64,000 bases of DNA from a virus (Duplodnaviria; Caudoviricetes). The notes under the pieces were generated by a model. It saw nothing but the letters and a program-made list of their open reading frames with translations, ran no database searches and was not told the DNA's origin. Numbering within the stretch: position 1 is the stretch's first letter; each line of letters starts with the position of its first letter. Where the stretch lies: the IMG/VR virus record IMGVR_UViG_3300029288_004944, positions 64,001 to 128,000 of that record; one strand, 5' to 3'. Positions 2,157-62,851 of this stretch are shown one piece after another. A program made the position numbers and the translations under genes.

Positions 2157-3392
2157 CTATTTTGAATAAAAATCATTAAAGATTTTATCCCTATACATTA
2201 CAATCTCTTCTGCTGTTAAATGGCTTGTAGAAACCATTGCCCTATACTCTCCACTCCTACCTTTCATATAAGAATCATCATAAGATGTATCTCTTAATTT
2301 GATGTCATATTTATCCATATTTTCTCTTATAGTTGTCCCCGGATATGGGTAAAAAATATTGGCATCAAGACCATCCATACCTATACTCTTTGCCCTTTCA
2401 ATCCATTTCATTGTTTCAGCAATAGTCTCATGGCTTTCGCCCGGCAATCCTATTATAAAAAATGTCTTAATAATAAGCCCTGCATCTTTACACCTTTGAA
2501 TTATTTCCATATTCTTCTCAACGCTTGTCCTTTTGTTTACCATATCAAGCATTTTCTGAGATCCACTTTCACATCCAAATCCCACGTGAACACATCCTGT
2601 ATCTTTCATTATTTTAAGTTTTTCCAATGTTGTCGTGTCATCTCCACGAATCAAGCATCTGTAAATCATACCTTTCTTTAACAAATGCTCTCCTATACGT
2701 TTTACCCTGTCTTGATCCAAAGTAAACACATCATCCTGAAAAACAACTGCTCTATAACCCATATCATATAAAAGATCAATCTCTTTAATTACATTCTCCA
2801 CAGAATTTCTTCTTATCTTTCCTTTCCACATCGAACAAGAATTACAGAACGCACAATCCCACGCACATCCCCTACTTGACATAATAGATGTCGCAAGCCG
2901 ATCGCCCACATAATACTTATAACTCTTTAAATCAACAGCATTAAAATCCGGCATGGGCAAAGTTGCCATATCCTTTACATACATCCCCTCAATTATCCTA
3001 CTATATGGCTTTCGGCCCAATTCTATTTGACGAACAAGATACGACAGGGCATGCTCCCCTTCTCCCTTAACCACATAATCAAAATAATCTAAACACTCCT
3101 GCGGTCTAACCGTGGGGTGAACGCCACCGGCCACCAAAACAGACTTAGGATAGAGTTCTTTTAAACGTGTAGCGATTTTAATGGCGTAGGGGTATTGGGG
3201 GGTTGTTAAAGATAAACCATATATATCAGCCTGCTCATTAAATTCTTCATAATTATCTCCGGTCAAATGTCTCACAACCACATCATACCCGTCCTGCTTT
3301 AAAAATGCAGAAAGATACAATAACCCTAAAGGCGTATTAACTTTTTCATCCATTAAAAAAGGACTTGGTGTTTCTATTAAAATTATTTTCAT
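2157..3392 (-). CDS. Cobalamin-binding (class B) radical SAM protein, probable methyltransferase
   Basis: N-terminal PLGLLYL / GGVHPT / GEGE B12-binding domain, SRGCAWDCAFC motif, GCESGS, IIGLPGE. Confidence 0.9.
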   Translation of the reverse strand: MKIILIETPSPFLMDEKVNTPLGLLYLSAFLKQDGYDVVVRHLTGDNYEEFNEQADIYGLSLTTPQYPYAIKIATRLKELYPKSVLVAGGVHPTVRPQECLDYFDYVVKGEGEHALSYLVRQIELGRKPYSRIIEGMYVKDMATLPMPDFNAVDLKSYKYYVGDRLATSIMSSRGCAWDCAFCNSCSMWKGKIRRNSVENVIKEIDLLYDMGYRAVVFQDDVFTLDQDRVKRIGEHLLKKGMIYRCLIRGDDTTTLEKLKIMKDTGCVHVGFGCESGSQKMLDMVNKRTSVEKNMEIIQRCKDAGLIIKTFFIIGLPGESHETIAETMKWIERAKSIGMDGLDANIFYPYPGTTIRENMDKYDIKLRDTSYDDSYMKGRSGEYRAMVSTSHLTAEEIVMYRDKIFNDFYSK

Positions 3393-3667
3393 TCATTCCT
3401 CCATCTTGGTTTTTTTATTATATCACCATTTTCATTATAAAATTCTTGTTTAATCATTTTACCGCTTTCATACCATTTACGTATCAAAATATTGCCATTG
3501 GAATAAAAACCTTCAAAAGCAGGAAGATCATTATCTCTATGATATTGACCATATTTCCACCAAAAAAGACAACCAATGTTGCCATTAGGCCAATAACCAA
3601 TATATCTTGGTTTATCTGATTGATCATCAGGCCCAAGGCGTTTTATAATATCTTGTTTTATGTCCAT
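3389..3667 (-). CDS. MDIKQD-leader MORN-variant repeat protein (copy 1)
   Basis: Shared leader; YWPNG..HRDNDLPA..SNG..WY repeats. Confidence 0.8.
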   Translation of the reverse strand: MDIKQDIIKRLGPDDQSDKPRYIGYWPNGNIGCLFWWKYGQYHRDNDLPAFEGFYSNGNILIRKWYESGKMIKQEFYNENGDIIKKPRWRNE

Positions 3668-4344
3668 TTTAATTTACCACCTGCCATTATCAATTCTCTT
3701 GTTTTCACTACACCAACATTTGCGATCATATCTATTATAGATAGGCCGGGAATAAATTCTCCATACCTTTGAGTATATTTCGGTGTAGTATATTCTGAAA
3801 ACATAACCTTAATACCTGCTTTTTCAAATTTATCCATTTCTAAATATTTTCTACCACTTGGCCCAGATAGATAAGTATCTGCACCAACCTTTCTACAAAT
3901 AGAAATAAGTCTGTCAGTTCCGCTACTATCATTTTTACCACACGATTCAAAAACAGGCCTGAGTATCATCAACATATCCATTAATCTTCGTATCATCTCT
4001 TTTGTTGCAACTGATAATAATGTATTATTTTCAAAATTAGTATCTTTAAATAAATCCCATATTAATTTATTATCCTTCCCATAATAATCTTTAATAACAT
4101 TAAGATGCCTATACCACCAATAACAATTATCAATTTTTGTTTCTTCTATTGTTTGACCGAAATTACCAACAACAGGAATTGTTAACCATTTTGCCCCCTT
4201 ATCTGTTTTAATTTTTGTTCTATTATGATATCCCCCTTTTTTGAATTGAACGTTCTCTAAAATTACGAAAATATCCGATTGAGAAATTTTGTAGAAGAAA
4301 CCTGCATGGGGTAAATAGTCGGGTTGATGAATAGCAACAATCAT
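3658..4344 (-). CDS. WbqC-family protein
   Basis: AIHQPDYLP, NRTKIK, WLTIPV, YLSGPSGRKY, LSIID. Confidence 0.9.
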   Translation of the reverse strand: MIVAIHQPDYLPHAGFFYKISQSDIFVILENVQFKKGGYHNRTKIKTDKGAKWLTIPVVGNFGQTIEETKIDNCYWWYRHLNVIKDYYGKDNKLIWDLFKDTNFENNTLLSVATKEMIRRLMDMLMILRPVFESCGKNDSSGTDRLISICRKVGADTYLSGPSGRKYLEMDKFEKAGIKVMFSEYTTPKYTQRYGEFIPGLSIIDMIANVGVVKTRELIMAGGKLKWT

Positions 4345-60636: not shown

Positions 60637-62286
60637 CTATTCCAACACGATATTTTTAAACAATCTTGAATCTATGACCATATCAGCCACAGACTTTTTA
60701 TTTCTCAACGCTCTTAAAATACCTGCATCCACCGTACCCCTACTTACTAAATCTATATATACAACATTGTTCTTTTGCCCAATTCTATGAGCCCTGTCTT
60801 CTGCCTGCAATCTCTTATCCAACTCAAATGTATTAGAATAAAATATAACAGTAGATGCAGCCGTCAACGTAATACCCAACCCACCGGTATCAATCTGACC
60901 AATAAAAACACGGAACTTTCCACTTTGAAAATCTTTTACAATCCTGTCTCTTTCATCCATTGATGTCTTGCCATAAAACATTTCAGACAATATTCCATTA
61001 TCCATAAACATTTTATAGATCTTCTGTATTTCTCTTGTAAACCTGCACCACACTATAAATTGACCATCAATTTCCTCAGATATTTCCAATAATTCATTTA
61101 ATTTACTACAAGGCAAATCTCTAACTACTCTATTTTCCCCTGTTTTAAGACCATCATCATCTGACAATATATCAGTTCTTTCAATATATCCACCACTAAC
61201 TTCCTGTAACTTAGTCAACTTGGCAAGAGCGTTGCTTACACTAAAAACCTCTCCACCAACTTCACTCATAAGATCATCTCTTAATTCTTTATAAACAGCA
61301 CTTTGTTCGGGCTCCATAGGAACATCTCTAACCTCAAATATCTTTTCGGGCAAATCAAGACACTCTTTCTTTGTCCTACGCAAACTTACCAAAGATATCA
61401 AATCCTTTAATTCCTGAACATTCTTATATCCAATGATCTTCATGTCCATATATCCGCCCATCTTGCAGTACCTTTCACGGAATAGCGTAAAATACGTGCC
61501 AAGCAGGCATCTATTCAATAATCTACTCTGCCCGAGCCAATCCACAAGGTTGTTTGAAATGGGCGTTCCTGTGGCTATAAAACGATTAGGAATGGTATCT
61601 GCAACAGAATATGCTGCCTTACTGCGATCTGCCCGTATATTCTTTATTTTAGTACTCTCATCACACATAATAGCATCAAACTTTTCATTAATGAGCAATT
61701 TTGACATAGATTTAACACCCTCATAATTAATAATGTAAAATCCATCTTCGGCCTTCAATAAAGCATCTGTACGTTTTTTCTTGTCTCCCACCAATTTAAT
61801 GACAGGCATATCTATATTAGAAGAAACCTCTCTTTCCCAGCTCCCAATAACTGATAAGGGACACACTATAAGTATCTTTTTCCACTTTCTATACAGTACA
61901 AAATCAATAAATGTCTTTGTTTTGCCTAAACCCATCTCATCTGTAATCGCTCCATATTGCCTGCTTGCAAAAAAATCAACACCTTCTCTTTGATGAATGT
62001 AGGGTTTAATTCTAAGATTATCAAAAAATTGTTCTTCCACTTCAAATATAGGAACTTTTTGAAATATTTGAAAAAAAGTATCCATACTTTCATCATAATC
62101 AAGAAGATCATCTCCAATCCTTTCTCTTAAAATCTCATAAGAAGGCTTACATGCCGGCATTGTCCATACTTTTAATCCCTTATTCCACCGAGTACCCATT
62201 GTTTCTTTAATTTTTCTTACCATCTTCTCATCAAATGGTATAACCCTCATATGAAATAAATGTCCGCTAAAACTAACTTTTATCAT
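60637..62286 (-). CDS. SNF2-family helicase
   Basis: DEMGLGKT, CDES, TGTP, GLGITLT, QAEDRAHRIGQ. Confidence 0.93.
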   Translation of the reverse strand: MIKVSFSGHLFHMRVIPFDEKMVRKIKETMGTRWNKGLKVWTMPACKPSYEILRERIGDDLLDYDESMDTFFQIFQKVPIFEVEEQFFDNLRIKPYIHQREGVDFFASRQYGAITDEMGLGKTKTFIDFVLYRKWKKILIVCPLSVIGSWEREVSSNIDMPVIKLVGDKKKRTDALLKAEDGFYIINYEGVKSMSKLLINEKFDAIMCDESTKIKNIRADRSKAAYSVADTIPNRFIATGTPISNNLVDWLGQSRLLNRCLLGTYFTLFRERYCKMGGYMDMKIIGYKNVQELKDLISLVSLRRTKKECLDLPEKIFEVRDVPMEPEQSAVYKELRDDLMSEVGGEVFSVSNALAKLTKLQEVSGGYIERTDILSDDDGLKTGENRVVRDLPCSKLNELLEISEEIDGQFIVWCRFTREIQKIYKMFMDNGILSEMFYGKTSMDERDRIVKDFQSGKFRVFIGQIDTGGLGITLTAASTVIFYSNTFELDKRLQAEDRAHRIGQKNNVVYIDLVSRGTVDAGILRALRNKKSVADMVIDSRLFKNIVLE

Positions 62287-62594
62287 TTTTTACCCAACAT
62301 ATCCAAGATTGCGTGAATATGCCCAATATTTTTATTTCGTTTCTCTTCTGATAAAACAGTTAAAATTTCTTCTTCACCTTTCTTGGGCTTTATTGATCTC
62401 ATTTCAATATTATGTTCACTCTGCACTCTATATCCTGCACAATCATTGCATAAGAATTTTATTGTCTTCATATTACCCTTATAAACATTAACGGGCTCTT
62501 CTCCAACAAATGTCTTATATGGACGATCTTGTGTCCTATATGTCATAACCCGGGCTAATTTTCCCGTAATCTTACCACATTCTTGACATTTCAT
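62283..62594 (-). CDS. Zinc-finger hypothetical protein
   Basis: CQECG...LCNDC. Confidence 0.55.
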   Translation of the reverse strand: MKCQECGKITGKLARVMTYRTQDRPYKTFVGEEPVNVYKGNMKTIKFLCNDCAGYRVQSEHNIEMRSIKPKKGEEEILTVLSEEKRNKNIGHIHAILDMLGKK

Positions 62595-62851
62595 TTTATT
62601 ATTTCTCCGTTTTCATCATAATGTTCTGATCTAATCTGCACACCATCCTTAAACCAAAAGCGATAAGAAATATTGCCATTCTCATAAAACCATTCAGAAG
62701 CAGGAAGATCGTTATCACGATAAAGTTGATCATTTTTATACCAACGACGAGTTGCAATTCTTCCATTTTTCCAATGTTTAACAATGGTTGGCTTATCATT
62801 ATCAGCAATATCAGTCCCAAGACGTTTTATGATATCTTGTTTTATATCCAT
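62591..62851 (-). CDS. MDIKQD-leader MORN-variant repeat protein (copy 5)
   Basis: Shared leader; WKNG, YRDNDLPA, YENG. Confidence 0.8.
   Translation of the reverse strand: MDIKQDIIKRLGTDIADNDKPTIVKHWKNGRIATRRWYKNDQLYRDNDLPASEWFYENGNISYRFWFKDGVQIRSEHYDENGEIIK

Follow-up and report, generated by a model that had tools for sequence, protein, structure and literature searches.

Five small genes of an uncultured jumbo phage, each lying between unrelated genes, open with nearly the same peptide and continue into MORN-like bodies that vary strongly, which raises the question of what this constant beginning is for. Within the window, meaning the whole 64,000-nucleotide stretch of the 139,457-bp IMG/VR record that was analyzed here, MDIKQDIIKRLG(P/T)D opens all five of these ORFs, and all are on the minus strand. 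The family of leader-bearing genes put forward in the original prediction is real, and it is larger than the five genes listed there. The record as a whole contains nine strict copies of the leader, and a 16-column tag profile matches 24 of approximately 203 genes (about 1 in 8, or 12%), with tagged genes scoring 18 to 33 bits against noise of at most 6 bits. These matches are all located at ORF starts on the coding strand, and none of 1142 internal Met positions matches. Two of the additional tagged genes, 33911-34399 and 31797-32153, fall within the window (Table 1), and no further tags were found in the approximately 28 kb of the 216.8-kb ENA contig that were followed past the IMG/VR record.

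Once the tag is removed, the bodies sort into approximately 14 BLASTP-unrelated groups, seven of the bodies being MORN-like, and at least a dozen unrelated small proteins are tagged. The proposed constant "address" on diverse bodies is supported. None of the 24 tagged proteins falls into an annotated family: 10 non-MORN cargo proteins returned nothing usable from Pfam and PHROGs, the product of 33911..34399 has no Pfam or PHROG family, and a 295-aa cargo has no usable match in the ESM Atlas. As for the surroundings of the MORN-like genes in the window, 3389..3667 overlaps a radical-SAM gene and a WbqC-like gene on its two sides, by 4 and 10 nt, 36863..37183 is flanked by an AAA ATPase gene and a NUMOD3/HNH gene, and 39511..39810 by an epimerase gene and clpX. 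The most degenerate copy is 58179..58532, in which two NG motifs have no Gly; its extended 3' end runs 71 nt into the next gene, and the gene is uncalled in the ENA annotation.

Table 1. Tagged genes found in the window, with the positions of leader codons 1 to 14.
Coordinates	Strand	Gene	Product length	Leader	Remarks
3389..3667	-	tagged MORN-like	92 aa	3626-3667	
31797..32153	-	tagged non-MORN	118 aa		GTG start; tag profile 18-22 bits
33911..34399	-	tagged non-MORN	162 aa		tag MDMKDEIIKKLGED
36863..37183	-	tagged MORN-like	106 aa	37142-37183	
39511..39810	-	tagged MORN-like	99 aa	39769-39810	protein modelled with AlphaFold2
58179..58532	-	tagged MORN-like	117 aa	58491-58532	
62591..62851	-	tagged MORN-like	86 aa	62810-62851	Thr13

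The portable unit comprises residues 1 to 14, and the leader of 21 residues originally described has to be shortened to this part. Residues 15 to 21 (I.DNDKP) are found on MORN bodies only and form the start of repeat 1, since HRDNDKPA and HRDNDLPA recur in foreign homologues, which align to the family profile only from position ~15-20 onward. The tag occurs in two flavours, MDIKQDIIKRLGPD and M[SGN]hI[DE]xhIxRW[G], with intermediates such as (M)DIIQTIINRWSEG at the start of 31797..32153. Twenty-three N-termini align without gaps, displaying hydrophobic positions 3, 7, 8, and 11, Arg/Lys at position 10, and Leu/Trp at position 11, followed by Gly-x-Asp. This pattern is predicted to be an amphipathic helix of approximately residues 3 to 11 with Gly-x-Asp as a helix stop, and the mean hydrophobic moment is 0.55 for the tags versus 0.31 for other N-termini. 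Structure prediction, which had been proposed as a check, gives a separate, low-confidence helix on a confident body: in the AlphaFold2 model of the MORN copy 39511..39810, a helix at residues 3 to 10 (pLDDT ~50) is detached from the fold and followed by coil (11 to 22) and by a beta-hairpin meander (23 to 90, pLDDT 85-95). A helix at residues 3 to 11 is likewise predicted on a non-MORN cargo.

We consider it probable, judging from the sequences, that the first 14 residues represent a portable address or docking module, placed by the phage at the very N-terminus of approximately 24 small accessory proteins. The helix would dock all tagged proteins on one common partner, and the seven MORN-like bodies would constitute a fast-turnover set of beta-hairpin binders delivered via the tag. 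A candidate for the partner is the prohead core (a 993-aa protease-scaffold fusion), in which case the cargo would be loaded into the capsid for co-injection, as with the capsid targeting sequence (CTS) of phage T4. This T4-style loading is our leading guess, a tentative one with odds well below even; the main alternatives are that the helix docks on a phage AAA+ unfoldase or binds membranes weakly. Two features resemble the T4 system: the tag arrays flank the gene of an Acb1/2H-domain protein upstream of the head module, and the gene for the protease-scaffold fusion adjoins that for the major capsid protein. Against capsid loading, the tag is missing from all of the approximately 35 genes that make up the head, fibre, and holin region, no tagged gene belongs to the head or tail module, and the candidate protease motif of large head-region proteins, [AS]S[LIMV]xK[KV][AS], does not occur in the tagged proteins. 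A k-mer search of 64 intergenic regions revealed no clear shared promoter motif.

The T4 CTS, 10 to 20 aa long, marks the N-termini of variable proteins that are otherwise unrelated (PMC5694885, PMC8442874). Both it and the phage tag are short N-terminal peptides common to unrelated, variable accessory proteins, and both are helical and amphipathic, by prediction in the case of the phage tag. In a comparison with T4 MKTYQEFIAE (PMC8442874), visual inspection finds similarity at 4 of 10 positions, over a length too short for statistics; the ungapped alignment shares Gln5, acidic 6, hydrophobic 7, and Ile8. However, neither the (L/I)xE cleavage site of the CTS nor another motif recognisable as a protease site is seen where the phage tag meets the body, and the phage has a head of the phage G / HK97 type, with a protease-scaffold fusion in place of the T4 gp21/gp22 core. 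The T4 CTS serves a handful of cargo genes, whereas the present phage has at least 24. Unlike the basic T4 internal proteins, the cargo is of mixed pI (4.6 to 9.8) and not consistently basic, and unlike CTS cargo many of the tagged genes are located within replication, nucleotide, or glycan operons that do not look late; packaging of the cargo here is putative. A second comparison, with a giant phage, is offered by SPN3US, whose gp53 and gp54 have identical N-termini that the authors proposed to target the protein into the prohead (PMC5694885). There, too, giant-phage proteins with divergent bodies keep their N-terminus. The ejection and inner-head propeptides of SPN3US and phiKZ are mostly >100 aa and end at an AXE-type protease motif (PMC5694885), and they belong to proven virion proteins, in contrast to a 14-aa tag with no such motif, on proteins whose place in the virion is hypothetical.

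N-terminal recognition signals for ClpX are established, and the tag could instead be an N-terminal degron or adaptor-docking peptide for a phage AAA+ unfoldase, either ClpX with host ClpP or a Cdc48/FtsH-like 511-aa ATPase, so that tagged proteins share a common timed turnover or remodelling. We regard this as rather unlikely. The phage does encode a true ClpX (484 bits to the NCBIfam equivalog, cut-off 359), complete with zinc-binding N-domain, GYVG pore loop, and LGF loop, as well as two more AAA ATPases; clpX and the 511-aa AAA gene are each adjoined by a MORN copy, and five relatives that have no tag also have no ClpX. However, this adjacency concerns only 2 of the 24 tagged genes and may be due to chance, and the ClpX link is not specific to the tag, since phage G possesses ClpX (45% identity) without it. 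The tag also has no obvious fit to the known N-terminal ClpX motif classes.

Slightly less probable again, the tag could resemble the short amphipathic helices that target MinD or FtsA to membranes, and would then hold the small phage proteins at the cell membrane. The hydrophobic pattern h-h-x-x-h-h-x-R-W/L-G, with a terminal Arg and Trp that suit a membrane interface, fits this idea, and the hydrophobic moment is comparable to the value computed for the MinD membrane-targeting sequence. Against it, the helix has only ~9-10 residues, and the RLG flavour places Lys4 amid the hydrophobic face. Positions 2 and 5 or 6 also keep acidic residues and the net charge comes to ~0, making the tag a poor fit to anionic bacterial membranes.

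The docking module as we prefer to read it is separable from the bodies that carry it, as the MORN-like proteins illustrate. Their bodies keep the fixed scaffold that had been noticed in them, with W27, N29, G30, W37, R46, D47, L50-P51-A52, G60, and W67 invariant. With MORN_2 (PF07661), which includes YwqK-type antitoxins, they share the repeat unit HRD(N/G)D(L/K)PA....(Y/W).NG.I....W, although the five window proteins score 12.1 to 20.8 bits, below the gathering score of 29.6, and unlike MORN_2 they have 2 or 3 repeats only and an N-terminal tag that is unique to them. The family profile (A2) recovers 5272 foreign MORN-like proteins at E<=0.001, and the leader is absent from all of them. Six of the profile hits were checked against MORN_2, of which one passes (P0071, 33.8 bits), two are just under the threshold, and three have no match. 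Structure searches gave weak matches (Foldseek: SET7/9 MORN region, OspA, and Rhs, E at least 0.08; VIA: Z at most 6.3), and the family profile, searched against PDB sequences, returned OspA alone, with E at least 0.009.

Gene 62591..62851 has its syntenic counterpart in a sister phage at L001:367-624; a syntenic MORN gene shows 54% identity, versus 93-94% for its flanks, and replacement sites change ~10 times faster in MORN bodies than in flanking genes. The rate comparison called for in the original prediction gives pS 0.525 and pN 0.050 for the leader overall and pN/pS ~0.7 for the body, where silent sites are near saturation. With a ratio below 1 and silent sites nearly saturated, the body values point to very weak constraint or rapid turnover only. 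Diversifying selection on the bodies is therefore not supported.

Could this simply be an ordinary paralogue family, derived from a single duplicated gene whose N-terminus is integral to the structure and better conserved than the rest? The seven MORN copies are indeed clear paralogues (BLASTP E-values 1e-14 to 1e-25). However, the same peptide sits on ~14 unrelated bodies, is missing from foreign MORN-like homologues, and is not packed against the fold in the AlphaFold2 model. In addition, a MORN body in the sister phage (L081:1470-1775, a gene missing at the corresponding site of the present phage) bears the RW-type tag MSIIDTVIKRWS, and tag and body are modular because this body carries the other flavour. 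An integral MORN cap is contradicted on each of these counts, in agreement with the earlier view of the leader as an addition to the MORN-variant proteins, and we judge the paralogue explanation very improbable.

It is the peptide, rather than its coding DNA, that selection maintains. The first 63 nt of copies 39810 and 58532 show, as reported, exactly three differences (AAA/AAG, CAA/CAG, GAT/GAC), all silent, and within the window the first 12 codons vary only silently. This pair alone is weak evidence because the five most similar copies have partly homogenised leader DNA, with pS 0.23 in the leader versus 0.45 in the body. Strong evidence for the predicted selection on the peptide comes from comparing copy subgroups, between which the leader has pS 0.69 and pN 0.06, with Arg encoded by CGT, CGA, CGC, or AGG and Leu by CTT or TTG. 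Least probable of all is a conserved DNA or RNA element (translation-initiation or regulatory element, or recombination box) as the main cause: the first 42 to 63 nt of the five closest copies are near-identical (0 to 6 differences) and identity drops sharply past ~nt 60, which suggests some gene conversion or cassette exchange, but silent sites are saturated between subgroups with the peptide unchanged, the flavours share a residue pattern and not bases, and nothing upstream of the ATG is conserved among copies.

Outside this lineage, the tag was not recovered. Degenerate-DNA scans for the strict leader gave no matches in IMG/VR, JGI metagenome contigs, and GTDB genome contigs, the RW-flavour pattern gave eight hits in IMG/VR, all unrelated or due to chance, and tblastn with the 21-aa N-terminus as query drew no match from 50,697 phage records. 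The tag profile, with the phage's own genome as a positive control, found none in phage G or in 10 related IMG/VR records, three of them complete. An analogous shared N-terminus was sought in three relatives, yielding a single candidate, a Cys-rich LCC.INP small-protein family in G003 that resembles a zinc-finger domain instead. Other huge-phage lineages may each place an N-terminal peptide of 8 to 25 aa on dozens of unrelated small proteins, candidates being MNRYDIALGKKPPP, MNWYK.., and MKRY[IV]xS. The present tag differs from these in sequence, in its two interconvertible flavours, and in its hypervariable MORN-like cargo, and no link to a protease site was found for it. We conclude that purifying selection on the peptide maintains the tag, that tag and body can be separated, and that the tag is confined to one phage lineage.

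The helix is thus most likely a tag for docking or addressing of a kind not described before. More speculatively, and with the odds against it, it could form part of a genome-wide protein-addressing system, in which a two-flavour helix routes approximately one-eighth of gene products to the prohead or a phage unfoldase, the cargo being diversifying MORN-like binders and orphan arrays around an Acb1-like counter-defence gene. If true, and taken together with the different peptides of other huge phages, this would make lineage-specific address tags a general and so far undescribed means by which huge phages deploy variable effectors. As an address label, the tag would provide a sequence handle listing the deployed accessory and effector set (24 proteins) of an uncultured jumbo phage, as well as a short portable peptide with which foreign proteins might be loaded. 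Within this set, the MORN-like proteins would form a natural library of small beta-hairpin binders evolving at arms-race speed, whose targets could reveal host defences. Even without a capsid partner, strong selection on a peptide carried by 12% of genes points to a central hub of the infection cycle that has hitherto been undescribed.

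All five window ORFs first noted to share an N-terminal leader are real and begin with MDIKQDIIKRLG(P/T)D, and the copies of the ORFs ending at 39810 and 58532 differ at exactly 3 of their first 63 nucleotides, all silently. The family exceeds these five genes. A six-frame scan recovers nine strict leader copies in the whole record, among them copies on bodies (the protein after the leader) that carry no MORN motif. When the pattern is relaxed beyond the strict leader, a wider, gap-free alignment of 23 N-termini shows hydrophobic residues at positions 3, 7, and 8, Arg or Lys at 10, and Leu or Trp at 11, usually followed by Gly-x-Asp. 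A 16-column profile of this tag matches 24 places in the record, every one at an ORF start and on the coding strand, while 0 of 1142 internal methionines match. In hmmsearch, true tags score 18 to 33 bits and all else 6 bits or less. The feature is real and statistically unambiguous. Most copies are preceded by a Shine-Dalgarno-like purine run, and the copies share no sequence upstream of the ATG. ENA annotation calls four of the five window ORFs as genes; the exception, the MORN copy ending at 58532, is called on another contig. This copy has lost Gly from two NG motifs, overlaps the next gene (amine-oxidase-like) by 71 nt, and may be decaying.

We observe two tag flavours, MDIKQDIIKRLGPD (RLG-type) and M[SGN]hI[DE]xhIxRW[G] (RW-type), as well as the intermediates MDLKEEVIKRWSPD and (M)DIIQTIINRWSEG. 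RW-type genes form two tandem arrays, at 34.3 to 36.7 kb and 42.0 to 44.3 kb of the genome. Between them lies a 1135-aa protein with a 2H phosphoesterase/Acb1 (anti-CBASS) domain at residues 700 to 813; it is itself untagged, and its RW-tagged neighbours on both sides are orphan genes.

Coordinates of tagged genes and other features of the phage and its relatives
Feature	Coordinate system	Position	Strand
Tagged ORFs first noted	window	3389-3667; 36863-37183; 39511-39810; 58179-58532; 62591-62851	-
Additional tagged genes	window	31797-32153; 33911-34399	
Strict leader, body without MORN motif	genome	44299-44574; 45795-46217	
Extra tagged MORN gene of the sister phage	L081	1470-1775	+
Amine-oxidase-like gene	window	56975-58249	
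Acb1-domain protein	genome (L009)	38473-41880 (473-3880)	-
ClpX and Cdc48/FtsH-like ATPase (joint entry)	window	38121-39329; 35303-36838	-
NUMOD3/HNH-type gene	window	37195-38100	-
NUMOD3/HNH-type genes	genome	23628-24584; 26586-27257; 47656-48606; 62999-63898	
NUMOD3/HNH-type gene	L010 (stretch of genome)	11769-12467	
[AS]S[LIMV]xK[KV][AS] proteins	genome, outside window (L003/L004)	9952-26596	
Cys-rich small proteins, examples	G003	50239-50427; 112598-112771	

Originally put at 21 aa, the leader is shorter, with a portable part of 14 residues; residues 15 to 21 (I.DNDKP) are found on MORN bodies only. Since every repeat unit of foreign homologues opens with HRDNDLPA or HRDNDKPA, and foreign matches to the family profile align from position 15-20 onward, "DNDKP" reads as the first MORN-like repeat. 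That profile found 5272 matches among 1.84 billion proteins, and only proteins of this phage itself and of one close relative aligned from position 1, so the leader is not integral to MORN-variant proteins. Stripped of their tags, the bodies (22 to 23 proteins) fall into about 14 groups without mutual BLASTP similarity, comprising seven MORN copies, three weak pairs, and singletons. For the ten non-MORN cargo proteins searched, Pfam and PHROG gave no usable family. The MORN body family thus pairs with both tag flavours, while a single tag heads many bodies.

Selection acts on the peptide, as had been claimed: over codons 2 to 14 of ten copies, pS is 0.525 versus a pN of 0.050, and synonymous codons are spread (CGT, CGA, CGC, and AGG for Arg10; CTT and TTG for Leu11). 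When the five closest copies are compared with all others, silent sites prove saturated (pS 0.69) and the peptide fixed (pN 0.06). Those five differ by 1 to 4 bases in the first 42 nt, and identity falls sharply past about nt 60. Because their leaders are near-identical (pS 0.23, versus 0.45 in the body), some recent 5'-end exchange or conversion is likely as a secondary effect.

Two short contigs (JGI sample 3300037067) come from a sister phage. One, L001, is syntenic with 60.6 to 63.8 kb of the window, with flanking genes 93 to 94% identical (dN/dS 0.04 to 0.07) and a MORN gene of 54% identity. The body of that gene has pN 0.39 and pS 0.49, and its leader pN 0.06. As the L001 copy resembles other paralogues as closely as its syntenic partner, the divergence reflects either very fast change or paralogue replacement, which the saturation of silent sites does not let one separate. 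On the other contig, L081, syntenic with 44.8 to 46.9 kb of the genome, a non-MORN tagged gene is 91% identical (neighbours, 74 to 91%); the fast part is therefore the MORN body and not all tagged genes. L081 also carries an extra gene, a MORN body with the RW-type tag MSIIDTVIKRWS, flanked by a kinase-like gene and the small gene that follows. The matching site in this phage is a short gap only, so the close relatives differ by the gain or loss of a tagged gene.

AlphaFold2, given an eight-sequence alignment, models a MORN copy as a helix at residues 3 to 10 (pLDDT about 50), coil at 11 to 22, and six beta-strands at 23 to 90 (pLDDT 85 to 95). A single-sequence model of a 162-aa non-MORN cargo again predicts a helix, at residues 3 to 11, with low confidence. 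Fold searches return generic hairpin-meander matches only (SET7/9 MORN region, OspA, Rhs, DUF1975). The tag is strongly amphipathic (mean hydrophobic moment, 0.55 versus 0.31 for other N-termini).

The window covers bases 64001-128000 of its source, an IMG/VR virus record (139,457 bp; GC, 33%; CheckV completeness estimate, 45%). Nearly all genes of the phage are on the minus strand, and an ENA contig of 216,802 bp carries the same phage. Its gene content includes a large terminase, portal, HK97-type major capsid protein, and a 993-aa protein in which a head-maturation-protease domain at the N-terminus precedes a long tail rich in Glu and Lys. Given these head genes, Bacillus phage G as closest deposited phage (portal identity, 35%), and metagenomic relatives with portals of 36 to 49% identity, the source is an uncultured jumbo phage. 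It encodes a full ClpX (NCBIfam equivalog; zinc-binding N-domain with C-H-C-C ligands; GYVG and LGF loops), present in phage G (gp258) and missing from five nearer metagenomic relatives, and a 511-aa Cdc48/FtsH-like AAA ATPase. At least six dispersed NUMOD3/HNH-type paralogues, one directly adjoining the portal gene, have a zinc-ribbon N-terminus in common (..HC.(I/V).C(G/H)K.NDGTL) and probably form a family of homing endonucleases. Across the genome, the motif [AS]S[LIMV]xK[KV][AS] (e.g., KKASLNKVA, SSSLNKKS) is confined to four large proteins (966, 374, 876, and 658 aa) encoded upstream of the terminase gene, where it may mark sites cut by the prohead protease.

The tag was not found in phage G, in ten related IMG/VR records (three complete genomes among them), in 50,697 phage records, or by pattern scans of IMG/VR, JGI metagenomes, and GTDB genomes. 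We found no paper describing the leader, and relatives G001 to G003 have no comparable shared N-terminus. The distant relative G003 (L069 to L079; 210 kb) encodes at least 14 small Cys-rich proteins of 47 to 139 aa starting M..LCC.(I/V)NP...C..C, a separate expanded small-protein family that probably binds zinc.

The tag would putatively dock on a single partner. Among known systems, the nearest is the capsid targeting sequence of T4 (MKTYQEFIAE; PMC8442874), an N-terminal stretch of 10 to 20 aa that brings internal proteins and Alt to the prohead core and is then removed (PMC5694885). By analogy, a candidate capsid-loading role agrees with the tag's architecture, with arrays that adjoin a counter-defence-like gene and lie upstream of the head module, and with the protease-scaffold fusion as a candidate docking core. 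However, the tag end has no recognisable cleavage-type motif, the head-region motif [AS]S[LIMV]xK[KV][AS] is absent from cargo, no tagged gene occurs in the head, fibre, and holin region (approximately 35 genes), cargo pI is mixed, and replication or glycan operons house many of the cargo genes. The case for ClpX as the partner is weakened by phage G, which encodes ClpX but lacks the tag. A membrane-binding helix is likewise weakened by the tag's conserved acidic residues and zero net charge.

The tag is a separable N-terminal module, selected as a peptide, on many unrelated small proteins, of which the MORN subset turns over fast. It is best described as a candidate address tag that gives the N-terminal address-tag principle a new form, specific to this lineage.
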